Of a stretch of 64,000 nt of DNA, positions 12,114-52,886 are shown piece by piece. The DNA comes from a virus. The notes beneath the pieces were generated by a model. It did not search any database and was not told the DNA's origin. It saw only the letters and a list, made by a program, of their open reading frames with translations. The translations under genes were made by a program, and so were the position numbers. Numbering within the stretch: position 1 is the first letter of the stretch; each line of letters opens with the position of its first letter. The stretch is taken from positions 22,355 to 86,354 of the IMG/VR virus record IMGVR_UViG_3300044645_002359. One strand, written 5' to 3'.

Positions 12114-13616
12114 ATGAAACTCTTCGCCCCTAACCTTACAGACTTCTACAAGACGGGTCACTACCGCCAGTACCCTGAAAACACGGAGTTCATCTACTCG
12201 AACATGACCGCACGGTCGGACCGTCTCGCCAAGATGCTCCCCGACTACGACCACAAAGTAGTGGTAGCAGGTATTCTGGGCACAGCAGCTTGGTACCTTC
12301 GCGACCTTTGGAACGATACTTTCTTCAGTCAACCTAAAGACCGAGTACTTGAAAAGTACCGCAGGCGAATGGACTCGGCTCTCGGACCTGGCGCCGTGAG
12401 CACAGCCCACCTGGCCGAACTTCACGACCTCGGTTACCTTCCAATCCGAGTAAAGGCTCTCCCAGAAGGCACCCGTGTCAATCTGCGCGTCCCCTTCCTC
12501 ACGGTGGAGAACACACACCCCGACTTCTATTGGGTGACTAACTACATTGAAACTGCCCTGTCGGCTGAAGTTTGGAAGCATGTCAACAATGCAACCATCG
12601 CCTACGAGTTTCGCCGCCTACTTGACCGATACGCAGATCTAACAGGGACTGACCGGTCTTTTGTTGACTTCCAGGCGCACGACTTTTCCTTCCGAGGAGT
12701 TAGTGGTATTCACGATGCTGCTGCCCACGGGATTGGACACCTGTTCTCCTTCAAGGGTACGGACAACATCCCGGCAATTGACTTCTTGGAAGATTACTAC
12801 AACGTTGAAGGCGAATTTATCGCCGGTGGCGTCCCTGCTACCGAACACAGTGTTATGTGCACCGGGGGCCAAGATACTGAGATTGACACCTACAGGCGTC
12901 TGATTTCTGAAACTTACCCGACTGGTATTGTTAGCATTGTTAGCGACACTTGGGACTACTGGAACGTTCTCACGAACATTGCTGCCCAACTGGAGGAGAC
13001 GATCCTGAATCGCCAACCGGATGCCCTTGGCCTTGCCAAAGTTGTATTCCGCCCTGATAGTGGAGACCCCGAGAGAATCCTTTGCGGCGACCCGGACGCT
13101 GAACCCGGCAGTCCAGCCTTCAAAGGCTCTCTGCAGCTCCTCTGGGACCTCTTCGGAGGCACCGTAAACGAGCAGGGCTTCCGCGTCCTTAACCCTCGCG
13201 TGGGCCTCATCTACGGTGACTCGATCACCCTTCCTAGAGCTCTTTCCATTCTGGAGAACATGCACAGCAACGGATGGGCCAGCGGTAACGTTGTTTTCGG
13301 TGTGGGTTCGTACACTTACCAGTTCCACACTCGCGATACATTCGGCATCGCTTTCAAGACGACTTGGACTCAAATCAACGGTCAACCTGTCGAAGTTATG
13401 AAAGATCCGATTACCGACCGTGGAACTAAGAAGTCGGCCAAAGGGTTGCTTCGTGTTGAAGAAGAGAATGGCGAGTACGTTCTCTACGAGCAACAAAGTC
13501 GAGATGAAGAGAGTCGAGGAGAACTGCGAACCGTATTTATGAATAGCCAGGTCTTCGAAAGACCCGACGAGAGTTTGACGAACATTCGCAGTCGTCTTGT
13601 CTCGCCAAATTCCTAA
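12114..13616 (+). CDS. nicotinamide phosphoribosyltransferase (NAMPT/NadV)-like; candidate Namat
   Basis: 500 aa; the N-terminus NLTDFYKTGHYRQYPENTEFIYSNMTAR matches the NAMPT start (TDSYKVTHYKQYPPNT…); overall NAPRTase-family architecture. Confidence 0.75.
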   Translation: MKLFAPNLTDFYKTGHYRQYPENTEFIYSNMTARSDRLAKMLPDYDHKVVVAGILGTAAWYLRDLWNDTFFSQPKDRVLEKYRRRMDSALGPGAVSTAHLAELHDLGYLPIRVKALPEGTRVNLRVPFLTVENTHPDFYWVTNYIETALSAEVWKHVNNATIAYEFRRLLDRYADLTGTDRSFVDFQAHDFSFRGVSGIHDAAAHGIGHLFSFKGTDNIPAIDFLEDYYNVEGEFIAGGVPATEHSVMCTGGQDTEIDTYRRLISETYPTGIVSIVSDTWDYWNVLTNIAAQLEETILNRQPDALGLAKVVFRPDSGDPERILCGDPDAEPGSPAFKGSLQLLWDLFGGTVNEQGFRVLNPRVGLIYGDSITLPRALSILENMHSNGWASGNVVFGVGSYTYQFHTRDTFGIAFKTTWTQINGQPVEVMKDPITDRGTKKSAKGLLRVEEENGEYVLYEQQSRDEESRGELRTVFMNSQVFERPDESLTNIRSRLVSPNS

Positions 13617-13716: not shown

Positions 13717-14307
13717 ATGGACTACAAGACAATCGCATACAAAAAGACCATTCTGGTCCTCAATTCCACGTATGAACCACTCAATAGTACCTCATGGCGC
13801 AGGGCTAGAGTTCTAGTCTTGAAGGAAAAAGCTCATGTAGTTTCTAGTCGCACAATTCGCCTGAAAAACTACGTGAAGGTCCCCCAAGCCAAAATGGCTG
13901 CTGGAAAGCCTTCTCGCGCTCTCATTTTGAAGAGAGACGGACACACCTGCCAGTACTGTGAGTATTCCGGTCCCAACCTTACAATCGACCACGTAGTTCC
14001 GAAGTCTCGAGGCGGCCAAGACACTTGGCAGAACCTTGTTACTAGCTGCCTAGAATGTAACAACTGCAAGGACAATCGTACCCCAGAAGAATGGGCTATG
14101 GCCCTGAAGAAGGTGTTTGCCAAAGAAACTACGAATGTTTCCCCCTTGCCATTCACCTGGGATAGCTTCCAGGTCGGAATGATGGAGACCAGAGTAAACA
14201 GCCGGGGCACAACCTTAATTGGAAAGCCGAAGGCACCTTACAGCAAGATGTCTGTTACGATTAGCACTGCCGAAGTTGACGAGTGGCGCGAATACGTTTA
14301 CGTGTAA
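13717..14307 (+). CDS. HNH endonuclease
   Basis: CQYCEYSGPNLTIDHVVPKSRGGQDTWQNLVTSCLECNNCK is an HNH motif. Confidence 0.75.
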   Translation: MDYKTIAYKKTILVLNSTYEPLNSTSWRRARVLVLKEKAHVVSSRTIRLKNYVKVPQAKMAAGKPSRALILKRDGHTCQYCEYSGPNLTIDHVVPKSRGGQDTWQNLVTSCLECNNCKDNRTPEEWAMALKKVFAKETTNVSPLPFTWDSFQVGMMETRVNSRGTTLIGKPKAPYSKMSVTISTAEVDEWREYVYV

Positions 14308-17299: not shown

Positions 17300-17366
17300 G
17301 GGGCGGTAAACCGCCCTACCCGGCTCGGTTTCCCGGCTTGTTTCTGCCACGCAGACACGGTATCAT
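17300..17366 (+). promoter_or_regulatory. hairpin-promoter cassette copy 6
   Basis: GGGCGGtaaaCCGCCC plus CCGGctcggtttcCCGG; -35 TTGTTT; spacer CTGCCACGCAGACA; -10 TATCAT; ATG at 17373. Confidence 0.55.
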
Positions 17367-17372
17367 TAGTTC

Positions 17373-18038
17373 ATGAACGAAGCTCCCTCGAAAACCATGA
17401 AACCGCTTCCTGAAGCTGTGACACAAGCTATCCTGTTGAAACCAGGGGACAGCGTCCAAGTCCCGGCTGTCGGCGTAAAAACAAAGGACGGTTGGAAGTA
17501 CGAGACCCAAGTCCCTTACCTCCACTTTCGGCAACAACCTGTAGAACCCGGTCTGTATCTAGTCACAGACATTTGGATGCACCCGAACGCGACAAATCCG
17601 GCTGACCCCTCTTCTTATTGTTACACTCTAAGGAGAATCCGTAGTAAGCGACGTCTTACTAGCTTAGAGTCAACCTGGAGGGAAAAGTACAAAAAGTCTG
17701 GATTTCAAGAGAAGTACTTTTCTTCCCAAAAAGTGAACTACAATTGCCTCGATTGGGATCAACTTATTAAGGAAGGTAAAGTTAAAACCGATGTGTACAA
17801 ACCGGGTGAGAAATTCAACCTAGACGAGTTCAAGAAGGATCTTGGTCAAGTGCTTTACAAGCACAAAGCAACTTTCCGACTTCGTCGCAGTTATGACGGG
17901 CCTTGGGATGCTGAGGGTTTTAATGTACTGATGGTATCTGTTCAAGGGGAAGATAAGGCCACACTTGCGACCGAGTGGCTGGACTTCCCTATCAGACGGT
18001 CGGAACCCACCTGGAAGGACGGTAAGCCGAACCGCTGA
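17373..18038 (+). CDS. hypothetical protein (221 aa)
   Basis: Leaderless ATG after the cassette; the C-terminal …DGKPNR is encoded by the downstream hairpin. Confidence 0.5.
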   Translation: MNEAPSKTMKPLPEAVTQAILLKPGDSVQVPAVGVKTKDGWKYETQVPYLHFRQQPVEPGLYLVTDIWMHPNATNPADPSSYCYTLRRIRSKRRLTSLESTWREKYKKSGFQEKYFSSQKVNYNCLDWDQLIKEGKVKTDVYKPGEKFNLDEFKKDLGQVLYKHKATFRLRRSYDGPWDAEGFNVLMVSVQGEDKATLATEWLDFPIRRSEPTWKDGKPNR

Positions 18039-18082
18039 GGGCGGTTAACCGCTCTTGTCCACACCCGAAAAACCTCTATAAT
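18029..18082 (+). promoter_or_regulatory. hairpin-promoter cassette copy 7 (-10 TATAAT)
   Basis: AACCGCtgagGGCGGTTAACCGC hairpins; -35 TTGTCC; -10 TATAAT; ATG at 18089. Confidence 0.5.
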
Positions 18083-18088
18083 GGAACC

Positions 18089-18496
18089 ATGGAACAAAAT
18101 CTGCGCCACTACCTGATCGACTGGCTTAACGAGTGGGGCTACAATGCCCTGGAAGAGTTGGCCGAATTTGACATCCGCGTTGCTCGCGATGAGCGTTACC
18201 CGAACCTCTTCAACCTGAAGTACGGCAGCGTGATGGCGGACAAGTCGCTGCCGATCGTTCGCGCTTGTCGTGGTGCTGTGGTTGAGCGTGTTGATAACGA
18301 TGGCGACCACTCGCCGTACTACCGCCTGGTAGCGTATGCTTTCGATCGTTTCTTCAACGTCGGCGAAGGTTATTGTCACGAACTAGATTGGTCGCATACC
18401 AAGGTTTATGAGAAGTACGATGGTTGCTTACATGCTGAGACTAAGGTAGAAACCTCAAAAGGTACAAACTATCAAAGAGATTTGCGAGAAGCCTGA
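18089..18496 (+). CDS. T4 Rnl1-like RNA ligase N-extein (motif I KYDG) fused to split-intein IntN; IntN is frameshifted and continues in another frame to about 18718
   Basis: DWLNEWGY…IVRACRGAVVERVD…DRFFNVGEG…KVYEKYDG tracks the T4 RnlA N-terminal region. This is followed by C|LHAETKVET (intein block A), and after a shift of one base by …YKITLENGNTIVLTGNHKVWD (block B, close to the gp41-1 IntN YKITLEDGKEIICSEEHLF). Confidence 0.6.
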   Translation: MEQNLRHYLIDWLNEWGYNALEELAEFDIRVARDERYPNLFNLKYGSVMADKSLPIVRACRGAVVERVDNDGDHSPYYRLVAYAFDRFFNVGEGYCHELDWSHTKVYEKYDGCLHAETKVETSKGTNYQRDLREA

Positions 18497-18688
18497 TGAA
18501 GTCAAAGTTTACGGCTTCGACCACAAATCTGAAGAGAAAGTAGAAGTTCCCATTGAGGCTGTCTCTGTCAAACAATGCAAGCCTGACACCCAGTGGTACA
18601 AAATCACATTGGAGAACGGAAACACCATCGTTCTAACAGGGAACCATAAAGTCTGGGATGAAGTGTCCCATTCCTACATCAGAGTAGA

Positions 18689-19789
18689 TCAACTTTCTGG
18701 AGAAGAGGAACTAAAGGAGTTTACTTGATACTTGACACTTTCACTAAGCTCATCTAGACTCATGTCCCGAATGTCTCTCTCCCAGATGTATATTACCGTA
18801 AACCCGTATTTCTCCGCAACTCCCTTCTTCTCTATATCCCTCTCCCAAATTTCTTCCACAAGGGTACTACCCCCTCCCGGAAGGTGAATACTGTCCCCAA
18901 ACGAATAGATTTCGGGGTTAGCGTGCCAATAGTCCCCCTGGACCTCTATTAGCACTTTGGTCCCCGTAATCAAAAAGTCAAATTGCCTTCTGGCAACAAA
19001 TCGAGAGAACTGAAATTTCAGACCCGCAAGTTCTAAAGCTTGAGACACCTTTTCTTCAACCTTGTTCATTTTCGTAAAAAACTTACCACTCAAGAAGTCA
19101 TCATTGACTTGCTTCCAGAATTTCCTTGTAAGCTCTCCTCTTCTTTCGGAGTACTCCTGCTTTCTTTCCTCGCCCCACCCCCTTCTCGTTTCCCTGAGTT
19201 TTTCTGCTATTGAACTCATCTTTTCCAAGGAAAAAGAAGCTCTAGTCAGAGAAATTGCCTCCGGGTTGGTAACCCTAAGCTTACCATAGCGCTCAAGATG
19301 AGTTTCGTTTATCTTTTCTTTGACATCTGAAAGTTGGAAAACATTGTCCACCCCGTACTTTGATCTAACTGTTTCATTTCTCTTGTGGTAAAATTCAGTT
19401 CCCTTACAGAGAACATTATTCACTCCGTACTTTTCTTGAGAAACTTTCACCATTTTACTTTTCTTTTGATTTGAACCATTAGCTTCTTTAATTTTTCTTA
19501 CAGGTATCTCAAAGTAGTCCATTAGAAAAGATAGTCTCCTGCCCGGTAATCCAAAAAGCTCTTTGAAGTCCGGGAAGCTGAACCCCTTAATCAGGTACAA
19601 GTGCTTTAGTTTTCTGCCACTCTCTAGTTTCAGCGCCGGGTAGCTAAGCTTCAAGGTGTTAAACCTGTACTCCTTTTCCGATAAACCAGGCCCCTTAAGA
19701 CAGGTTTTCAAATGAATCTTCCTTCCACACTCCTTAAGACAAACAAAGCAAACCAAACTCTTAACTAGAACCCCCATGAAAATCTCCAA
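18689..19789 (-). CDS. free-standing homing endonuclease (Vsr/DUF559-like PD-(D/E)xK C-terminal domain, repeated KYGVxNV N-terminal modules)
   Basis: The only − strand gene; C-terminal VLIEVQGDYWHANPE…ERDIEKK…GFTVIYIWERDI resembles a Vsr-like endonuclease domain; it sits between the IntN and IntC halves. Confidence 0.6.
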   Translation of the reverse strand: MEIFMGVLVKSLVCFVCLKECGRKIHLKTCLKGPGLSEKEYRFNTLKLSYPALKLESGRKLKHLYLIKGFSFPDFKELFGLPGRRLSFLMDYFEIPVRKIKEANGSNQKKSKMVKVSQEKYGVNNVLCKGTEFYHKRNETVRSKYGVDNVFQLSDVKEKINETHLERYGKLRVTNPEAISLTRASFSLEKMSSIAEKLRETRRGWGEERKQEYSERRGELTRKFWKQVNDDFLSGKFFTKMNKVEEKVSQALELAGLKFQFSRFVARRQFDFLITGTKVLIEVQGDYWHANPEIYSFGDSIHLPGGGSTLVEEIWERDIEKKGVAEKYGFTVIYIWERDIRDMSLDELSESVKYQVNSFSSSSPES

Positions 19790-20654
19790 AATAGAAAAGA
19801 TAGAAAGTGACTCCCACCTATATGATATACAAACTTTTACCCGTAACTTCTACGCTGAGGGGGTATTGGTACACAATAGCTTAATCAAGCTCTTCAACTA
19901 CAACGGGGACTGGATTGTTTCGACGTCCGGATCGGTGGCAGCAGCTTCGGAAGTTGGTTCCACTGGGCGTTCTTTTGAGGAACTGTTCTGGCTTGTCTTT
20001 GACGAAGTTGGTTATTCTCGGGAATGGCTCGATGAGGGTCTGTGCTATATCTTCGAACTGTGCCACCGCGATAACCGCATCGTTGTGGATTATGCAGAGC
20101 CTCAGTTACCGCTGCTGGCTGTGCGCGACCGTTCCAACGATTTCGAAGAGCTTGAACTTGTTTCGTTCTGCAACCTGTTCGGGTTCAAAGCTGCCAAGTC
20201 GTATGACCTGGGGAGCATGGAAGGCTTGATGGCAGTCGTGAACGATCGTGGCGCCGACCACGAAGGGTTTATCCTGTTTGACGGTGTTGGTCGTGCGAAA
20301 GCAAAGTCCGATGTGTACTGCCAAATGCACCGTGTTCGCGGAAACGGCGATCCGGACTTCTCCGAGCTTTTTCTGAACGACGATTTGGAAGAATTCCTAC
20401 TGCACTTCCCTGAGTACCGTGAGGGCTTCGACGTTCACCTGCGTTCCATCGACATAATGGAAGTTGCTGTGGAAGAGATCATGGGGGTTTACAACCACTT
20501 GAATCAGAAGGACTTTGCTCAAGTTGTAATTGCTAAGGAGAGGGAACTGTCGGGGGCTTGTTTTGCGATTCGCTCCGGTAAAGTTGGCTCCTTCGGTCAG
20601 TGGCTGGAAGGCTTGTCTCCGAAGAAGCTGGATGCCCTGCTGGGTATCAACTGA
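19776..20654 (+). CDS. split-intein IntC (…FYAEGVLVHN|S) fused to the RNA ligase 1 C-extein
   Basis: MKISKIEKIESDSHLYDIQTFTRNFYAEGVLVHNS gives intein blocks F and G with a +1 Ser. The extein SLIKLFNYNGDWIVSTSGS…EGFILFDGVGRAKAKSDVY matches T4 Rnl1 DGSLVST…KSKGS and motifs IV and V EGYVAV…KIKSDWY. Confidence 0.65.
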   Translation: MKISKIEKIESDSHLYDIQTFTRNFYAEGVLVHNSLIKLFNYNGDWIVSTSGSVAAASEVGSTGRSFEELFWLVFDEVGYSREWLDEGLCYIFELCHRDNRIVVDYAEPQLPLLAVRDRSNDFEELELVSFCNLFGFKAAKSYDLGSMEGLMAVVNDRGADHEGFILFDGVGRAKAKSDVYCQMHRVRGNGDPDFSELFLNDDLEEFLLHFPEYREGFDVHLRSIDIMEVAVEEIMGVYNHLNQKDFAQVVIAKERELSGACFAIRSGKVGSFGQWLEGLSPKKLDALLGIN

Positions 20655-20685
20655 CCTTAATTCCCTTTAGTAAAATCCAAACAAA

Positions 20686-20979
20686 ATGTCAATGTCAACC
20701 TACGTCTACGGTTATCGTTCCCCTGACGATGACGAACATCAAAAACATCTCAAAGTTCTAAGAGTTTGCCGCGAAGTTGGGGTTTCCCTTCCAGATGAAA
20801 CTTCGGACTATTTCGACGGTGTCAAACCAGAGTATATCGACCCAGATTGTACTCTGAAAGTGAGGATCCCGTTCATGAAGTCGTCCCCTGTCCTGGTTCC
20901 GCAGGCTATGAGATCATCCTTTCGGAGATTCCCCAAGGTGTCCATAAAATTCGATTTGAACATAGTTGGTAATCCCTAG
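20686..20979 (+). CDS. hypothetical protein (97 aa)
   Basis: ORF. Confidence 0.4.
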   Translation: MSMSTYVYGYRSPDDDEHQKHLKVLRVCREVGVSLPDETSDYFDGVKPEYIDPDCTLKVRIPFMKSSPVLVPQAMRSSFRRFPKVSIKFDLNIVGNP

Positions 20980-21011
20980 TTTTCTTTCTTACACATGCAC
21001 TCAACGAAACT

Positions 21012-21191
21012 ATGAACCCGAACAACGACGATCTGAACTATCTGCTTAGCCTACCCACCCCCAGACTGCTCAAGGTATTTCAAAGAGTGCGCGGCCAGTT
21101 GAGCGTGATAAATGAGTGTGACTGGGACAATTATAAACTTCAAGACGAGGAACTTAACTGGCTTCCTGAAAATGCGGATGTTTCGAGGTGA
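21012..21191 (+). CDS. small hypothetical protein (59 aa)
   Basis: ATG ORF below the track cutoff that fills an otherwise empty gap. Confidence 0.25.
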   Translation: MNPNNDDLNYLLSLPTPRLLKVFQRVRGQLSVINECDWDNYKLQDEELNWLPENADVSR

Positions 21192-21313
21192 GTTACAGAC
21201 GAACACGGTCACCCTAAGTTTAACCCAATATATGGGGCTTTGCAGATCAGAAATCTAGTGAATCTAAAAGAGAATCTTAAGGCAGAACTTGGCAAAAGGG
21301 AACATGTCACCCG

Positions 21314-22045: not shown

Positions 22046-22405
22046 ATGGCCGAAATCAAAGTAGTCAACAAGTACCACATCGGCGGGAGGCCGATGAAGC
22101 CCCCGGAAGGAGTCATTCGTGCAGCAGTTTACCGCAGCACACCTTTAGGCAACCCTTTCAAAATGGTTAACTCTTCTATTGAGGAGAGGAACAGGGTGTG
22201 CGACGCTTACGAACAATGGTTACCAGCTAAGCTCCTGCAAGATGGAGCTGAGTTAGCCCAGTTCAACGAACTACTGAAACTAGCTCAAACACCGGGGTGC
22301 GAGGCACTAGAACTAATCTGCCATTGCGCCCCAAAACGTTGCCACGGAGACACCATTAAACGCTTACTCGAAACAGAACTTCAAAATGAAATTACCTTTG
22401 ACTAA
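22046..22405 (+). CDS. DUF4326-like protein
   Basis: GNPFKM…RVCDAYEQWL…CHCAPKRCHGD matches the DUF4326 pattern GNPF…Y..WL…C.C.P..CHGD. Confidence 0.45.
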   Translation: MAEIKVVNKYHIGGRPMKPPEGVIRAAVYRSTPLGNPFKMVNSSIEERNRVCDAYEQWLPAKLLQDGAELAQFNELLKLAQTPGCEALELICHCAPKRCHGDTIKRLLETELQNEITFD

Positions 22406-22625
22406 CGTCCTGTCAGAACTCTCTACTGAAGACAAGAATCTTTACACGGCACTTTTGAGTGTCGTCACAGTTGTAATTCTGCTCCTGCTGGGAATGACCT
22501 CTTGTGCTATCACGGAAAGTCGAGAGCGGATTAATAGAACAATCCTAGATTGCAGAAGTACAGCTGTTAATAGAGTCGAGTCAACAGATACACTCGACTT
22601 GATTTGTGGGAAACTGCCTCAGTGA
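22386..22625 (+). CDS. small membrane protein (79 aa)
   Basis: Transmembrane segment LLSVVTVVILLLLGMTSCAI. Confidence 0.35.
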   Translation: MKLPLTNVLSELSTEDKNLYTALLSVVTVVILLLLGMTSCAITESRERINRTILDCRSTAVNRVESTDTLDLICGKLPQ

Positions 22626-23362
22626 CACACTCCCGATATGCCATTATCGGAGACGTTCACTCTCAAGCATTCCCCTTGAAGAATGCCCTAGACTACTGTT
22701 ACGATAACAACTTAACTCCAATTATTCTTGGCGACCTTTTTGATTCGCAGTGTCAGGTTTCAGAGTCAGTTTCTGTTTACAACCTTGTAAGAAAGTCTCA
22801 GGGCGATCTTGGAGCGATTGTACTTCGCTCGAACCACCAGCACCTCCTTGAGAAACTTATCAAAAAAGAAGAGGTTTCCCTTAAAAAAGACTTGTGTAAA
22901 ACAGTCAGAGAGTTTCAAGAGGCAGGAATTTGTCTAACTGAGGTAGGGCAGTGGCTTGAAACTTTCCCTTACGTTTTCGCCTTCCGAGACTCTCGAGGAC
23001 AAGAGTACAGAGTCGCTCACGCGGAAATTCCTGCTTCAGTAAAGGTACCGAACTTCGATCAAACCTGGATGTATCTTCACCCCACGGAACAAGAGCTGCG
23101 ATGCCTGCTTTGGGGCGCCGATTACTCCCTGCCCAACCGTGACCGGTTCTGGTGGCTCGGGAAGCCCGAGAGGGACTGGGTAGCCGTCGCGGGCCATTAC
23201 CACAAGGTTGTCAACGATGGCCGCTCTCTCGTCCTCGACGCTGGGTGTGGAGGGAAGACCCGCGCCTGGTACGACAAGCGTCCCCCTGCGTTACTTCTCT
23301 ACGACGTTGAGGTCCAAAGCCTGATTGAATTCCCGGCTTTTGATAACTCGGTCGTAGGGTAA
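22622..23362 (+). CDS. metallophosphoesterase, PPP/ApaH-like (paralog 1)
   Basis: YAIIGDVHSQ…ILGDLFDS…LRSNHQHLL are PPP-family motifs; GTGA-coupled GTG start inferred. Confidence 0.6.
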   Translation: MTHSRYAIIGDVHSQAFPLKNALDYCYDNNLTPIILGDLFDSQCQVSESVSVYNLVRKSQGDLGAIVLRSNHQHLLEKLIKKEEVSLKKDLCKTVREFQEAGICLTEVGQWLETFPYVFAFRDSRGQEYRVAHAEIPASVKVPNFDQTWMYLHPTEQELRCLLWGADYSLPNRDRFWWLGKPERDWVAVAGHYHKVVNDGRSLVLDAGCGGKTRAWYDKRPPALLLYDVEVQSLIEFPAFDNSVVG

Positions 23363-26426: not shown

Positions 26427-26461
26427 TATTGCATGAACATGACACGAGCCTAATCTACAAA

Positions 26462-27586
26462 ATGGCAAACATCGAACGCAAACTTGCATCTGTCCGCAAA
26501 GTAACGGACATTCGCCCCATCCCCGACGCTGACGCCATCGAATGCGCCATTGTAGGTGGTGGTTGGCCCGTGGTAGTGAAAAAGGGAGAATTTCAGGTTG
26601 GCGACCTCGCCATCTACTTCGAGATTGATTCCTGGATTCCTCACGAACTTGCCCCATTCCTCTCCAAGGGGAAGAAACCAAGGGAGTATAATGGAGTGAA
26701 GGGGGAGAGGCTGAAAACTGTCAGGCTCCGTGGTCAAGTCTCCCAGGGTCTCCTGCTCCGCTTCTCGGACATCTCTCCAAGCTTCTACGTTGTCTCGCTA
26801 GCCGAACCTTACGGGGGGAGGGAATTTCTCCGAGTTGATCAGTGCGTGTGGGAGGAAGGTGAGGACTTCACTCTAGAGTTCGGAATTCAGAAATGGGAAG
26901 CTCCTGTCCCAGCTTGCTTGGCTGGTCAAGTTCGCGGGAACTTTCCTAGCTTCCTCGTGAAGACGGACCAGGAACGTTGTCAGAATGTTGTGGAGGAAAT
27001 CTTTGAGCGCCATAAGGGTGAAACCTACGAAGTTACTATCAAACTTGATGGGTCTTCCTGCACGGTCTACGTCAAGGACGGGGAAGTTGGGGTGTGCAGC
27101 CGTAACCTTGACCTCAAGGAAACCGAAGGCAATAGTTTCTGGAAGGCTGCTAGGGATCAGGGCATTATCGATGCTATGCTTGCATACAATGGGAAGACTG
27201 GTCACAGTATTGCCTTGCAGTCGGAAACCCTTGGAGAAGGCATCCAGGGCAACCAGGAAGGAATCAAGGGACAACGCCTATTCCTGTTTGACATCTTCGA
27301 TATCGACAGCCAAACTTACATGAAGCCAGGGGCCAGAATGAACCTCTTGGACAAGTACCTAGTTCCATTAGGCGCTGATTTAACCCATACCCCTGTCCTA
27401 CACCCCGCAATGTGTGTAACTGATAGTTCCGCCAACCTTGATGAGCTACTAGCGTACGCCGATGGCCCGTCCATGAACCCCAAAGTCAAACGCGAAGGCT
27501 TAGTATTCAAGTCCAATGACTCTGAGTTTTCCTTCAAGGCCATTAGTAATGAATGGCTCTTATCCAAGGGAAAGAAGGGTGGCTGA
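26462..27586 (+). CDS. ATP-dependent RNA ligase (KxDG nucleotidyltransferase with an N-terminal OB-like extension; DraRnl/Rnl5-like)
   Basis: Motif I IKLDGSS, motif IV EGLVFK, motif V FKAISNEWLLSKGKK; an N-terminal domain of about 170 aa precedes the nucleotidyltransferase. Confidence 0.65.
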   Translation: MANIERKLASVRKVTDIRPIPDADAIECAIVGGGWPVVVKKGEFQVGDLAIYFEIDSWIPHELAPFLSKGKKPREYNGVKGERLKTVRLRGQVSQGLLLRFSDISPSFYVVSLAEPYGGREFLRVDQCVWEEGEDFTLEFGIQKWEAPVPACLAGQVRGNFPSFLVKTDQERCQNVVEEIFERHKGETYEVTIKLDGSSCTVYVKDGEVGVCSRNLDLKETEGNSFWKAARDQGIIDAMLAYNGKTGHSIALQSETLGEGIQGNQEGIKGQRLFLFDIFDIDSQTYMKPGARMNLLDKYLVPLGADLTHTPVLHPAMCVTDSSANLDELLAYADGPSMNPKVKREGLVFKSNDSEFSFKAISNEWLLSKGKKGG

Positions 27587-34270: not shown

Positions 34271-35764
34271 ATGACAACCTTTTTGAACGCACTCGAAAAC
34301 GAATTCAATACTACGACCACAGCCAACGGCGCAAAAGCCTATAAGTCCACAGGTTCCAAGAACCTGGACCTTTTCGGGAAGATTGCAGCCTGCCGCAACG
34401 ACGTTAGCGAAGCAACTCGCCTATTCAACCTTGCTTATGCTGAAGACCCTGAGACCGCAACCAGAATCCTGTTCTGGGCACGTGACATTCGCGGTGGCCA
34501 GGGTGAGCGTAAGATCTTCCGAGAAGTTTTCAAGGAGCTGGTTCGCAATGATGCTACAATCGGCGCGAAACTCATTAGTTTGATCCCGCAGTATGGACGC
34601 TGGGATGATGTGGTAGCCCTTGAAGGCACCCTAGTTTGGAATGTTGCACTCGAGGCAATCAAGGCACAGCTGAACGCTGACTTGAACACCGAAGTTGGAA
34701 ACTCCGTGTCATTGCTTGCGAAATGGCTCCCTTCCATTAACGCCTCTAGCAAGGAGTCTAAGAGGATTGGCCGCAAGATTGCCGAGGCAATGGGTTGGAA
34801 TGAGCGTCAATATCGCAAGGCTTTGACTGCTCTTAGGACACAAATCAAAATTGTCGAACAGGCAATGTGTGCCCGTGAGTGGGATGCCATTGATTATAGC
34901 AAGTTGCCTTCTCGTGCAGGCTTCATGTATCGGAAAGCTTTCGCAAATCGTGATGGCGACCGTTACCAGTCCTACCTGGATGCAGTTAAAAAAGGTGAAG
35001 CAAAGATCAATGCCGGTACTTTGTATCCGTATGACATCGTTGAGAAGTGTCTCTACAACCAAGAATCCAATGATACTCTAGAAGTAATGTGGAAAGCCCT
35101 GCCGAACTTCATGGAGGGCAAGGAATTGAATGGGCTTGTTGTTGCCGATGTTAGCCGTTCTATGTCAGGCCGTCCAATGGCAGTATCCATCTCTCTGGCG
35201 ATGTATATCGCAGAGCGTAATACCGGCATCTGGAAGGACAAGTTCCTAACATTCTCAGGGAATCCTTCTCTACAGACTGTGACTGGCAGTAGCCTTTCAA
35301 ACAAGGTTCGCAACCTTAGCCGAGCAGATTGGGGCGGTAACACTGATATTCAGAAGACGTTTGACCTTATTCTGGATACTGCAGTTCGGAACAACATTCC
35401 AGAGTCAGACATGCCCCGCAAACTGATTATTGTCTCAGACATGCAGTTTGATAACTGTGTTATCATGGGAGGTAATTACTCCGGTCGTATGAGTTATGGC
35501 GGAGCCCGAGTCACCAACTACGAAGCAATCCGCATCAAGTACGCTCAAGCTGGCTACAGCTTGCCCGAAGTTATCTTCTGGAATGTCGATTCCTCAGATA
35601 ACGTCCCGATGAAGGCACATGATTCCGGTACCGCTCTCGTTAGCGGTTGCTCTCCGTCAATCCTGACCGCAGTTCTTACCAGAAACGCAATCACCCCATT
35701 GTCCCTAATGAGAGATGCTGTTTATACTGAAAGGTATGACGCTGTGGGTGCGGTCTTTAACTGA
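34271..35764 (+). CDS. DUF2828 family protein with a C-terminal von Willebrand A domain with a metal-ion-dependent adhesion site (vWA/MIDAS) (Ro60/TROVE-like domain order)
   Basis: N-terminus LNALENEFNTTTTANGAKAYKSTGSKNLDLFGKIAACR…LFWARDIRGGQGERKIFR fits the DUF2828 signature; C-terminal VADVSRSMSG is a MIDAS DxSxS motif. Confidence 0.6.
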   Translation: MTTFLNALENEFNTTTTANGAKAYKSTGSKNLDLFGKIAACRNDVSEATRLFNLAYAEDPETATRILFWARDIRGGQGERKIFREVFKELVRNDATIGAKLISLIPQYGRWDDVVALEGTLVWNVALEAIKAQLNADLNTEVGNSVSLLAKWLPSINASSKESKRIGRKIAEAMGWNERQYRKALTALRTQIKIVEQAMCAREWDAIDYSKLPSRAGFMYRKAFANRDGDRYQSYLDAVKKGEAKINAGTLYPYDIVEKCLYNQESNDTLEVMWKALPNFMEGKELNGLVVADVSRSMSGRPMAVSISLAMYIAERNTGIWKDKFLTFSGNPSLQTVTGSSLSNKVRNLSRADWGGNTDIQKTFDLILDTAVRNNIPESDMPRKLIIVSDMQFDNCVIMGGNYSGRMSYGGARVTNYEAIRIKYAQAGYSLPEVIFWNVDSSDNVPMKAHDSGTALVSGCSPSILTAVLTRNAITPLSLMRDAVYTERYDAVGAVFN

Positions 35765-36048: not shown

Positions 36049-36166
36049 TGGGGAATGGTGCAATGGCAGCACACGTAATTAACGGTTACCTTGGATAAGG
36101 TACAGACAGCAATTACAAAAATTCCATTCCACGGACGTGACGGAGGTTCGATTCCTTCTTCCCCAT
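36049..36166 (+). ncRNA. tRNA-like RNA with a non-canonical insert of about 85 nt (acceptor TGGGGAA/TTCCCCA; D arm GTGC…GCAC; T arm GGAGGttcgattCCTTC)
   Basis: Canonical 7-bp acceptor, D and T arms, but no standard anticodon stem; the insert carries a TACCTTggatAAGGTA hairpin and a CAGACAGCAATTA motif. Confidence 0.4.
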
Positions 36167-36363
36167 TTTCGAAAATCAACTCAAGCAATCAACAATGAAG
36201 TCATCTCATCTTTACACTTTGATCGGTGTTGTAGCACTGTGGTTTGTATTGACCTTGACACTAATTCTCAAGGAAAACTATCAAGGTGCTATCGGAACCG
36301 GATTGGCCCTTTTCTTTTCCTCGGTTGGTACGATAGGTGTTGTTGCCCATTTTGAAGGGAACA

Positions 36364-36429
36364 GGCGGTAAACCGCCCCATGTGGTTCGGTTTGCACCCT
36401 TGTTTTCGCACCGCGAAAACGCTATGATT
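36364..36429 (+). promoter_or_regulatory. hairpin-promoter cassette copy 12
   Basis: GGCGGTAAACCGCC…GGTTCGGTTT; -35 TTGTTT; spacer TCGCACCGCGAAAA; -10 TATGAT; ATG at 36435. Confidence 0.55.
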
Positions 36430-36434
36430 ATAAC

Positions 36435-36878
36435 ATGAACCAAGAGACCTACTTCCCTTGCTCTCGCCAGATCGAGATCCTCGATCAGCACGAGAACGCC
36501 AACGAGATTCCTCCGTACGTTAATTATCTGGTGCGGTTTGAGAACCCCTACGGTGGAGAAAGTGTCGGAGTGGTAATTGAGCCCAACTCCGAAGGCGTCG
36601 AAGAAGTTTACACTAACCAGAAATTTCCGGTAGCTTCCATGCTTCCTGGCCAATCGGAAAATGACGAGCTTCTGCTCAACCTTTTCCGCACCTGGGTGTT
36701 GACTCCGCCGATGTTTACACAAGTCACTGTTCGTCAACAGACGGACAAGTTCTACACCTTGAGTTTTCACAATCAGCACTGGAATTTCCATGCCCGCTCT
36801 CGGAACCTCTCGTACATCAAAGGGAAGATTCGGAACCTAGCAAAGTCCCGTGATGTGAAGGTCACCTGGGAGGTTTGA
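36435..36878 (+). CDS. hypothetical protein (147 aa)
   Basis: Leaderless ATG. Confidence 0.45.
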   Translation: MNQETYFPCSRQIEILDQHENANEIPPYVNYLVRFENPYGGESVGVVIEPNSEGVEEVYTNQKFPVASMLPGQSENDELLLNLFRTWVLTPPMFTQVTVRQQTDKFYTLSFHNQHWNFHARSRNLSYIKGKIRNLAKSRDVKVTWEV

Positions 36879-37255: not shown

Positions 37256-37373
37256 GGGACCGTAGCTCAACTGGTAGAGCGCTAAATAAAAGTTATCTTG
37301 TACAAGATACGTCAGCAATTAAAAAATACCTCGTTTAAAGGAGTGGTTGCAGGTTCGAGTCCTGCCGGTCCCA
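37256..37373 (+). ncRNA. tRNA-like RNA with a 46-nt insert (acceptor GGGACCG/CGGTCCC; D arm GCTCAACTGGTAGAGC; T arm GCAGGttcgagtCCTGC)
   Basis: Textbook tRNA 5' half and T arm; between them is a palindromic hairpin ATCTTgtacAAGAT plus ACGTCAGCAATTA; no well-paired anticodon stem. Confidence 0.45.
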
Positions 37374-43435: not shown

Positions 43436-43480
43436 GAGAGAGTTTACCTCTTCTCAGTCAACGCTAGACTAAATGTGAAT

Positions 43481-43552
43481 GCCCTGGTAGCTCAGTGGAA
43501 GAGCAGCGACCTTCTAAGTCGTCGGTCGGGGGTTCGAATCCCTCTCAGGGTG
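43481..43552 (+). tRNA. tRNA-Arg (anticodon UCU)
   Basis: Cloverleaf: D arm GCTCagtggaaGAGC; anticodon stem GCGAC/GTCGT with loop CTTCTAA; T arm GGGGGttcgaatCCCTC; acceptor has two G-U pairs. Confidence 0.6.
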
Positions 43553-43592
43553 TCGGTTGCTTTCGCAACCCTATCAAACAACAACATATCAA

Positions 43593-43745: not shown

Positions 43746-43797
43746 TTCACTTGTCAGGGTTGGCCTAAACGTGAACAACCCTGACGTTTCAACTCAT

Positions 43798-43887
43798 GGG
43801 CGTGTGGTGTACGGTAGCACAGGGTCCCTTATGAAGACCACTCCGGCAGATTACCGGCTAGTTAGGGTTCGACTCCCTACGCGCCTA
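43798..43887 (+). tRNA. type-II-like tRNA (long variable arm CCGGcagattaCCGG; anticodon loop CTTATGA, identity ambiguous)
   Basis: Acceptor GGGCGTG/CGCGCCT; T arm TAGGGttcgactCCCTA; weak anticodon stem. Confidence 0.4.
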
Positions 43888-43971
43888 TTTGATTTTGGGT
43901 AATAATGACCATGCTTTGTAACCAAAGCATTAACAACCTGCATTAGCAATCTACGCTAACAACGACAAAAA

Positions 43972-44566: not shown

Positions 44567-45487
44567 GTGAAACTCGAAGCCGTTATTGTTTGCGTCAACT
44601 ACTCTGACTTTTTGGCGCATACCCTACCAAGTACCAGAAATCAATTCGATAAACTTGTAGTTGTTACCGATACTAAGGATAACGATACTAAGAAGCTATG
44701 CGAATACTACAATGTAGAATGTGTTCAAACAGACGTATTCTATGAGGGGGGAGACGCATTTAATAAAGGTAAGGGTATCAATGCCGGTTTAGAGCGATTG
44801 GACCTTGATGGCTGGGTTATTCACTTAGATTCAGACATTTACTTGCCACCTCAAACACGGTCGATTCTAGAGAATTTGCCTCTAGATAATGGGAAAATCT
44901 ACGGGGCTGACCGTCTAATGTGCCCTGGTTACGAAGAGTGGTTGAGATTCTTAGATAAACCCTCCCCTATTCAAGACTCTTGGATTTTCATCCACCCTAC
45001 AAGATTCCCGGTCGGAGTCCGAATCGCAGAGTATAAAACTTGGCACGGTGGCTATGAACCAATTGGCTACTTCCAGCTATGGAATCCAGAAGGGTCAGGT
45101 ATTCACCGTTACCCGAATGAACACGGGTTCGCCGACCGTACAGATGTTCTGCATTGCAAAAAATGGCCTAGAGAAAAAAGAGAATTGCTTCCTGAAATTC
45201 TCGTTATACACCTAGAAAGCGAAGCAGGAATAGGTCTAAATTGGAAAGGCAGAAAGACTCCAATGTTTGGGCCAAAAGCCACCTTGCCAACCCTATCTTG
45301 GCTGGACAAACTATTTTTATTCTTAAATAAATTAAGCAAGTGCGGTTACAAACCTAACCTTAAAGTCTCAAAGGAATCAAAGAAAGAAAAATTAAGTAAG
45401 TTAGAACAAGGTGAGATAAAAGTCATAGGTGCAGGCTCAATTGAAGGTCCATTAGATGACTCATTGGAAGAGTGGCTGAGAGGCTGA
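44567..45487 (+). CDS. putative GT-A-fold glycosyltransferase / nucleotide-sugar transferase (GTG start)
   Basis: N-terminus AVIVCVNYSDFLAHTLPS…KLVVVTDTKDND with the DxD-like HLDSDIY resembles family-2 glycosyltransferases. Confidence 0.35.
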   Translation: MKLEAVIVCVNYSDFLAHTLPSTRNQFDKLVVVTDTKDNDTKKLCEYYNVECVQTDVFYEGGDAFNKGKGINAGLERLDLDGWVIHLDSDIYLPPQTRSILENLPLDNGKIYGADRLMCPGYEEWLRFLDKPSPIQDSWIFIHPTRFPVGVRIAEYKTWHGGYEPIGYFQLWNPEGSGIHRYPNEHGFADRTDVLHCKKWPREKRELLPEILVIHLESEAGIGLNWKGRKTPMFGPKATLPTLSWLDKLFLFLNKLSKCGYKPNLKVSKESKKEKLSKLEQGEIKVIGAGSIEGPLDDSLEEWLRG

Positions 45488-45549
45488 TAGCAGCAGTTTC
45501 GAAAACTGCAGAGGGTTAAACCTCCGGGGGTTCAAATCCCTCCTCTTCC
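45465..45549 (+). tRNA. tRNA-Ser (anticodon CGA), type II
   Basis: Acceptor GGAAGAG/CTCTTCC; D stem GCTG/TAGC; anticodon stem GCAGT/ACTGC with loop TTCGAAA; variable arm AGAGGGttaaaCCTCC; T arm GGGGGttcaaatCCCTC; overlaps the last 8 codons of the upstream CDS. Confidence 0.7.
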
Positions 45550-45588
45550 GTTTACGGTTTTTTCCGATGAATAATAATAAGTTCAGCG

Positions 45589-52633: not shown

Positions 52634-52886
52634 GTCAAACGTTCAGGCTGCTTCGGCAGCCCGGAAGTAGGTGACAAAGGAACGCATTCGTTCAGTCTGT
52701 TTACAGGCCGGGATTGTCTCCAAAGGAACGCGCAAAGCAACCCTAGGAGAACACAATGATTAACACTTCAGACAATTCAACCAAAGGTCTCAACCCTCTG
52801 TTTCTTATCAAAAAAAGCCTTATCAAAGAAAGCAAACTCAAAGAAGCACAGCTTGAGATGGCCAAGAAACCCTAAATTCTATAAAA

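Follow-up and report, generated by a model that had tools for sequence, protein, structure and literature searches.

In fractured genes, an enzyme is encoded in two pieces, each of which carries one half of a split intein, and an endonuclease can be encoded between them. In environmental phages, 26 such loci have been described, with eight types of host gene: gp41, IMPDH, DnaE, NrdA, NrdJ, DNA ligase, terminase, and one unknown (Dassa 2009, PMC2677866). Half of these loci contain Vsr-like endonucleases, GIY-YIG endonucleases also occur, and all three coding regions lie on one strand (PMC2677866). Two other systems are close to the subject of this paper. I-Bth0305I, present in a group I intron of recA, is the prototype of the EDxHD homing endonucleases (PMC3239194; PDB 3R3P). 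In actinobacteriophages, VSR-like endonucleases are found antisense within contiguous inteins, and split derivatives of these have been predicted; the hosts there are terminase, polymerase, capsid, and ThyX, with RNA ligase hosts of the RtcB type only (bioRxiv 10.1101/2025.01.02.630785). Here we describe a locus within 64,000 nucleotides (nt) of viral DNA (IMG/VR record IMGVR_UViG_3300044645_002359, positions 22,355 to 86,354; this whole stretch is called the window, and its first letter is position 1). At this locus, the gene for an RNA ligase of the T4 RNA ligase 1 (Rnl1) type is interrupted by the N-terminal and C-terminal halves of a split intein (IntN and IntC), and an endonuclease gene lies on the opposite strand between them. 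It is probable that the arrangement is a mobile fractured-gene cassette, composed of a split intein and an antisense EDxHD endonuclease and residing in the Rnl1 ligase gene of a large phage-like genome, and that the copy in the window is disabled.

The interrupted RNA ligase gene and its split intein

Once 1453 intervening bases are taken out, the + strand encodes a T4 Rnl1-type ligase of 370 amino acids (aa). The N-extein (18089..18424, +) comprises 112 aa and has nucleotidyltransferase motif I, K109-Y-D-G112, at its end; the C-extein (19878..20654, +, stop included) comprises 258 aa, including the +1 Ser (AGC, 19878-19880), and contains ligase motifs III, IV, and V. The spliced protein matches the Pfam family PF09511 (RNA_lig_T4_1) with 70.5 bits (cut-off 28.3) and an expectation (E) value of 2.4e-19. 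It also matches phrog_562 ("RNA ligase and tail fiber attachment catalyst") at 1e-41; this match covers residues 25-350 of the 377 in the profile and reaches residue 347. The T4 Rnl1 structures (PDB 2C5U, 5TT6) are distant relatives, aligning over residues 34-270 with an E value of 1.7e-8. In the alignment with 2C5U, KYDGSL falls on K99-EDGSL, and motifs III (IFEL, 170), IV (EGFIL, 241), and V (AKAK, 252) are in register with NFEF, EGYVA, and FKIK. Since KYDGSL aligns with K99-EDGSL, the insertion lies three residues past the catalytic lysine of motif I, the residue that becomes adenylylated. Pfam reports no match of the window protein to the C-terminal domain of Rnl1 (PF20819, T4_Rnl1_C) at E values up to 0.1; this domain is matched, weakly, in the distant homologue at the related locus L014. 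Judged by its profile matches and motifs, the host gene is a T4 Rnl1-type RNA ligase.

The closest among 451 homologues, P0001 and P0002, are 90% identical to the spliced protein at 100% coverage and are encoded as an uninterrupted 370 aa on contigs of up to 282 kb. Uninterrupted homologues read ...VYEKYDG/SLIKLFNYNG... (the slash marks the insertion point), which is also the sequence of the joined exteins; the insertion is in frame and precise. In the relatives, the ligase gene is either uninterrupted, encoding 370 aa, or contains these intein halves; none consists of two open reading frames (ORFs) without intein motifs.

The two halves of the intein are found on the two + strand ORFs, much as the original prediction had placed them. 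The first ORF (18089..18496) runs through the N-extein to G112 and continues in frame with CLHAETKVETSKGT, followed by 10 out-of-frame residues and TGA TGA. The in-frame portion is the start of IntN (18425..18465, +), with block A reading Cys1-LHAETKVETSKG-T (Cys1 at 18425-18427); up to this point it is identical to the related loci L001 and L002. The remainder of IntN (18468..18728, +) lies in the +1 frame, which from 18468 reads ...TIKEICEKPDEVKVYGFD...YKITLENGNTIVLTGNHKVW...EFT; it contains block B, LTGNH, with the TxxH motif, and ends with a stop at 18726-18728. In relatives, IntN is 101 aa long. The second ORF (19776..20654, +) opens with the 34-aa IntC, MKISKIEKIESDSHLYDIQTFTRNFYAEGVLVHN (19776..19877, +), which terminates in His-Asn (VHN) and is followed directly by Ser and 257 more ligase residues. 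Thus, both the N-extein ending in KYDG with block A after it and the new ORF with IntC, Ser, and the rest of the ligase were correctly recognized, and the alignment with 2C5U bears out the claim that motifs IV and V are present in the latter.

When joined, the intein halves match PF14890 with 42.8 bits (cut-off 35.8). In phmmer comparisons, the NrdJ-1 intein (8UBS) aligns over residues 12-135 with an E value of 1.1e-10, the block B His included; the likeness to gp41-1 (PDB 6QAZ), which had been called striking, is far weaker (E 0.005). By these alignments the nearest characterised intein is NrdJ-1. IntC can be aligned with the C-terminal blocks of both NrdJ-1 and gp41-1. Every relative, even the distant L014 and L016, retains Cys1, TGNH of block B, the terminal HN, and Ser+1. 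A word-based search for further copies of the intein, which relies on shared 5-residue words, yielded only six proteins, all of them split N-terminal ORFs of Rnl1 ligases (39-100% identity), with no contiguous version and no other host. A three-piece intein was considered and rejected: in the +1 frame the remainder of IntN contains no ATG, GTG, or TTG until 18609, by which point block B has begun. Since the first start codon is this TTG at 18609, the remainder of IntN is not an independent ORF.

A two-nucleotide deletion in the window copy

Block B is out of frame and followed by a stop, as had been noted earlier. This is no mere detail of the arrangement: it results from a real 2-nt deletion that most likely leaves the copy unable to trans-splice. 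In a DNA alignment with five relatives, the latter read ACGAAAACT where the window reads ACAAACT; the deletion lies between 18465 and 18466 and shifts the frame of IntN after residue 14. The resulting out-of-frame tail (..NYQRDLREA; 18466..18496, +) and the tandem stops TGA TGA close a 135-aa product. In contrast to the window, L001-L004, L012, and L013 have an N-terminal ORF that is unbroken through IntN.

The absence of a start codon before block B and of a recognisable frameshift signal suggests that the N-precursor would lack most of IntN, in which case the ligase would not be reconstituted. The window copy is probably a null allele, with a non-functional ligase and an N-precursor that lacks block B, and its sequence is most likely that of a recently inactivated allele. 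A second RNA ligase is encoded in the window at 26429..27586 (+), with matches to PF09414 and to PHA02142, the latter including an oligonucleotide-binding (OB) fold, and could buffer the loss of the fractured Rnl1.

Two other kinds of explanation would leave the ligase active. In the first, the window locus is a working fractured gene, both halves of which are trans-spliced to active ligase, and the break in the frame is an error of sequencing or assembly. As this would predict, the locus is undamaged apart from the missing 2 nt and differs hardly at all from the intact relatives. However, the identical 135-aa truncated product is found in four sources, which include separately made NCBI/JGI, Logan, and ENA assemblies: a 10.7-kb JGI/NCBI contig, the Logan assembly of SRR27428156, a MEGAHIT-style ENA contig, and a 201-kb contig. 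In addition, the two contigs with readable DNA, L006 and L007, show no difference from the window (100% identity) over the deletion site, and short-read sequencing does not typically lose 2 nt outside a homopolymer, as would be the case here (ACGAAAAC to ACAAAC). Because the same product recurs in separate assemblies and L006 and L007 are identical here, the deletion is a real allele rather than an assembly artefact, and an error in an otherwise working locus is improbable.

In the second kind of explanation, the frame is restored by the ribosome. A +1 translational slip near UCA-AAA-GGU-ACA-AAC could give a low level of an N-precursor one residue shorter than that of the relatives, so that the ligase would be down-regulated rather than lost. 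Such a slip would be possible in principle, since a tRNA-Lys paired with AAA could shift to AAG (18458-18461) and thereby return to the frame of IntN, and all other parts of the window copy are preserved. However, no known stimulator of +1 slippage is present: GGU, the codon that follows, is neither rare nor a stop, no upstream element resembles a Shine-Dalgarno sequence, and a canonical slippery site is missing. Furthermore, transcriptional slippage would require a longer run than A4, and the relatives do without any such device. Consequently, down-regulation by slippage seems most unlikely. In a more elaborate form, the frameshifted allele would be alive through a slip at UCA-AAA-G (18455-18461), the ligase would be gated by both frameshifting and trans-splicing, and transcription of the endonuclease gene, antisense to the two intein ORFs, would be a further, third control; we regard this as very improbable. 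An inactivated allele thus is the preferred reading of the window copy.

The antisense endonuclease and the spread of the cassette

The gene between the intein halves (18689..19777, −; stop at 18689-18691, likely start the ATG at 19777) encodes a free-standing homing endonuclease of 362 aa. A GGAG sequence is present 6 nt upstream of its ATG. The palindrome CATG is common to this ATG and the start codon of IntC, and at its other end the endonuclease gene overlaps the ORF of IntN by 40 nt. It had been described as the only − strand gene, and this agrees with our survey: no other tested − strand ORF of at least 150 aa has a family match, and the one inspected, at 36261..36791, is overlapped by a + strand ORF.

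The earlier assignment of the endonuclease to a Vsr/DUF559 type is correct insofar as Pfam reports DUF7487 together with weak matches to DUF559 and Vsr, but the nearest relative by both profile and fold is I-Bth0305I. A phmmer search of the PDB with the single sequence was uninformative, and a profile and a predicted structure were needed. With a profile of the C-terminal nuclease built from 34 homologues, the best match is 3R3P (I-Bth0305I; 3.7e-6), followed by Vsr 1CW0 (0.005). An AlphaFold2 model with a pLDDT score of 89.8 likewise fits 3R3P best, with a target-normalised template modelling (TM) score of 0.74, followed by Vsr 1VSR (0.65). In the 34 homologues, E278, D282, H285, and D314 are invariant. 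Together, the profile, the predicted fold, and the invariant E/D/H/D residues place the enzyme in the EDxHD/Vsr-like homing family. The region N-terminal to the nuclease, ~230 residues, is helical and contains two DUF7487 stretches, with a repeated KYGV.NV motif, and a conserved C..C..H..C cluster; neither a NUMOD model nor a solved DNA-binding domain matched this region.

Related loci show that the arrangement is not confined to the window. Six metagenomic relatives, L001/L002, L003, L004, L012, and L013, have the same geometry, with an unbroken N-terminal ORF of 208-213 aa (N-extein plus IntN) and a C-terminal ORF of 292 aa. The endonuclease is antisense in the window, L001-L004, and L012-L015, and its ORF is intact in the window, L001, L003, L012, and L013. 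In L014/L015, whose Rnl1 is distant, the insertion site is the same and the endonuclease is again antisense, but it does not overlap its neighbours. In L004 (2915-4002) the endonuclease gene is frameshifted and the intein halves are intact. In L016 (4492-4666), another distant ligase, a split intein occupies the same site, and its halves are separated only by a 173-nt spacer that lacks an endonuclease gene.

Between the window and L001, DNA identity is 98.7% in IntN, 99.0% in the endonuclease, and 100% in IntC, but only 88.7% and 86.5% in the two exteins. The difference is larger between L012 and L004, in which the intein halves are 98% identical and the exteins 66-70%. Away from the junction, identity drops over 30-90 nt. 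In the intein-containing alleles of the window clade, the C-extein opens with the five codons AGC TTA ATC AAG CTC; the intein-less L008, whose empty junction reads ...GAGAAATACGATGGG/TCTCTTATTAAGTTGTTC..., encodes the same amino acids with TCT CTT ATT AAG TTG, reported as five synonymous differences. This pattern in the codons next to the junction indicates co-conversion of the flank. Among the best 120 ligase homologues, 8 contain the intein and 108 do not, and the nearest extein neighbours of intein-containing alleles are mostly intein-less. Between the two intein clades, the ratio of nonsynonymous to synonymous substitution rates (dN/dS) is about 0.09-0.10 for the endonuclease and 0.014 for IntC; by this measure the cassette is under purifying selection. 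Taken together, the discordant identities, the co-conversion, the scattered distribution, and the dN/dS values point to recent horizontal spread by homing, with selection for a working endonuclease and intein. These comparisons indicate a cassette that is actively homing.

It is hardly likely, given these data, that the − strand gene encodes an ordinary Vsr-type mismatch-repair nuclease or a decaying passenger in a cassette that is inherited vertically and does not home. This idea would fit the JGI annotation as "G:T-mismatch repair DNA endonuclease", the weak Pfam matches to Vsr and DUF559, and the fact that the gene is frameshifted in L004 and absent from L016 despite the split intein there. 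However, the profile and fold rank I-Bth0305I ahead of Vsr, and the N-terminal region of roughly 230 aa has no counterpart in Vsr. Nor would vertical descent or the decay of a passenger account for cassette DNA that is nearly identical amid exteins of 66-89% identity, for co-converted flanks, for the scatter among intein-less alleles, or for a dN/dS of about 0.1.

A mobile cassette can be pictured to act as follows. A split intein of the class 1 type sits between Gly112 and Ser113 of the ligase, and the intact relatives would make two precursors: the N-extein with IntN attached (208-213 aa), and the C-extein preceded by IntC (292 aa). After association of the halves, trans-splicing would proceed through an acyl shift at Cys1, attack by Ser+1, and cyclisation of the terminal Asn, generating the 370-aa ligase. 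The endonuclease would cut intein-less alleles of co-infecting phages near the codons of motif I. The cut allele would then be repaired by recombination and thereby acquire the complete IntN-endonuclease-IntC cassette together with a few tens of flanking bases. As a more speculative and less likely extension, the cassette might, in the case of the frameshifted copy, represent a gene drive that is still spreading while it destroys its host gene.

Several points weigh against this picture of a homing cassette with a disabled copy in the window. The endonuclease, IntC, and C-extein of the window are undamaged, and its IntN is 98.7% identical to that of L001; with the rest undamaged, the deletion must be very recent, or else it is tolerated or bypassed somehow. 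The assemblies that share the deletion may stem from related samples, so that they speak against an artefact of assembly without showing how common the deletion is. For IntN, dS between the clades is saturated and yields no dN/dS value, and the search by 5-residue words may overlook relatives of the intein that are contiguous or have another host. Finally, in a scan of the region for promoters and terminators, the counts were not above those of shuffled sequences, and no convincing promoter was found for the antisense endonuclease.

Further searches were aimed at relatives in the databases. A scan of IMG/VR with the N-terminal ORF returned only intein-less alleles. Megablast found nothing that matches 17300-21300 among 50,697 GenBank phage records, and a tblastn search of GenBank phages with the ligase found only relatives of <36% identity, none of which is interrupted. 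With the intein, tblastn of GenBank phages found only a Campylobacter phage PhoH intein and terminase regions of Brucella phages. The latter correspond to a stretch annotated "terminase large subunit" and "HNH endonuclease" in about 40 Brucella phage genomes (e.g., HF569090.1 926-1240), which resembles the ligase intein with 28% identity (E 9e-5); from this similarity, the stretch may be another break of a terminase gene by an intein plus endonuclease.

The chance is negligible that the interruption is a group I intron with an endonuclease gene, or that two independent ligase genes are present without any intein, since, even though EDxHD endonucleases also occur in group I introns (e.g., I-Bth0305I), intein blocks lie exactly at the break, their removal restores the homologue sequence residue for residue, and no Rfam family was detected at 17900-20800 at E values up to 1.

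The surrounding genes and comparison with known systems

The window contains other genes related to RNA. Along with the second RNA ligase (26429-27586), genes for a Metallophos phosphoesterase, a DUF4326 protein, and a DUF2828/DUF7788 protein with a von Willebrand factor A (vWA) domain ("RNA-binding protein" in PHROGs) form an RNA-metabolism neighbourhood, all on the + strand (22604-23362, 22046-22405, and 34271-35764). Two matches to the tRNA model RF00005 are located at 36049-36166 and 37256-37373 (+), with 41.5 and 50.1 bits and a length of 118 nt each. Their acceptor, D, and T arms are normal, about 45 extra nt are present in the anticodon region, and ARAGORN calls neither. The insertions of the two are alike (GUUAyCUUG…CAAGrUAC…CAGCAAUUAmAAAAAU). 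Given the two RNA ligases and the phosphoesterase in the window, a link of these tRNA-like sequences to tRNA processing is conceivable. Genes for tRNA-Arg(tct), tRNA-Ile(tat), and tRNA-Ser(cga) are found at 43480-43554, 43797-43888, and 45465-45551 (+), respectively. A gene for a permuted, two-piece type transfer-messenger RNA (tmRNA) is present at 2103-2287 (+; RF04321, 73 bits), for which ARAGORN gives a tmRNA at 2069-2378 with the tag peptide ANKIVKFERTAVAV. A glutamine riboswitch aptamer lies at 52638-52688 (+; RF01739, 41.3 bits, cut-off 35), and Shine-Dalgarno sequences are missing before most + strand genes. The combination of a glutamine riboswitch, a permuted tmRNA, and few Shine-Dalgarno sequences is what we take to be a hint of a cyanobacterial host.

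Upstream of the ligase, a free-standing HNH endonuclease gene (13717-14307, +) lies directly 3' of a nicotinamide phosphoribosyltransferase gene (12114-13616), and the same gene pair is also found upstream of the ligase in L012. Two promoter-like sequences on the + strand may be mentioned, of a kind that is no more frequent here than in shuffled sequences. TTGTCC-16-TATAAT (18055-18082) ends 7 nt ahead of the ligase ATG at 18089 and would mean a leaderless, or nearly leaderless, mRNA; TTGACA-17-TAGACT (18732-18760) lies just past the stop of IntN.

With this locus, an RNA-repair enzyme, Rnl1 split in motif I, joins the natural hosts of split inteins, which so far have been mostly enzymes of DNA replication and packaging. 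NrdJ-1 and gp41-1 are the fastest known split inteins. The intact relatives of the window copy provide a new Cys1/Ser+1 split intein that is related to both and is a candidate for an orthogonal protein-ligation tool, as well as a new EDxHD endonuclease whose candidate target is defined. In addition, one gene family presents most stages of the homing cycle: alleles without the intein, intact cassettes, a cassette with a decayed endonuclease (L004), a split intein that has lost its endonuclease (L016), and a broken intein (the window). This does not amount to a new principle, but it is a natural series in which the evolution of inteins and homing endonucleases can be followed.

The ligase itself resembles T4 RNA ligase 1 (RnlA) in having a nucleotidyltransferase domain whose motifs I, III, IV, and V can be aligned. 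Its intein shares with NrdJ-1 and gp41-1 Cys1, TxxH, the terminal HN with Ser+1, and the size and pattern of IntC (KI.KIE....YDI....F.A..(I/V)L.HN); it differs from them in its low identity, in its extein, and in its insertion site. The endonuclease has the catalytic E, D, H, and D of I-Bth0305I and, like it, a separate N-terminal helical region that is presumed to bind DNA. However, the N-terminus here consists of DUF7487 and a Cys/His cluster, and the identity of the core is only about 20%. As in the actinobacteriophage inteins, an antisense EDxHD/Vsr-like endonuclease occupies the endonuclease slot, and there are signs that the element has spread among divergent exteins. In those inteins the sense frame runs through, so that they are contiguous, whereas in the window no open frame continues through on the sense strand, and the intein is truly split.

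The closest parallel is provided by the fractured genes of Dassa et al. In both cases the host enzyme is encoded by two co-oriented ORFs at one locus in a phage context, and the insertion is in an active-site motif. The split lies between blocks B and F, at the usual slot of the endonuclease, and gives a long IntN and an IntC of about 35 aa. A Vsr-like endonuclease is present between the halves, its ORF overlapping the adjoining intein ORFs. The view that this is the known fractured-gene arrangement is thus correct as to the kind of element but not as to the strand, since all three regions lie on one strand at the loci of Dassa et al., while in the window the endonuclease gene is on the other strand and overlaps the ORFs of both intein halves. 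There is also no non-coding spacer or upstream hairpin, but a tail-to-tail overlap with IntN and a CATG shared with IntC, and the window copy is frameshifted. Furthermore, an Rnl1-type RNA ligase lies outside the eight host types. The suggestion that no RNA ligase had been reported in such a role is supported as regards Rnl1: searches of the literature yielded no Rnl1 ligase with an intein or a fractured arrangement, nor did the 50,697 GenBank phage records. With its antisense endonuclease gene that overlaps both neighbours, the locus bridges the same-strand fractured genes (Dassa 2009) and the antisense Vsr-like endonucleases of contiguous inteins. Thus, the Rnl1 host gene and the antisense orientation of the endonuclease are new, and the kind of selfish element to which they belong is known.

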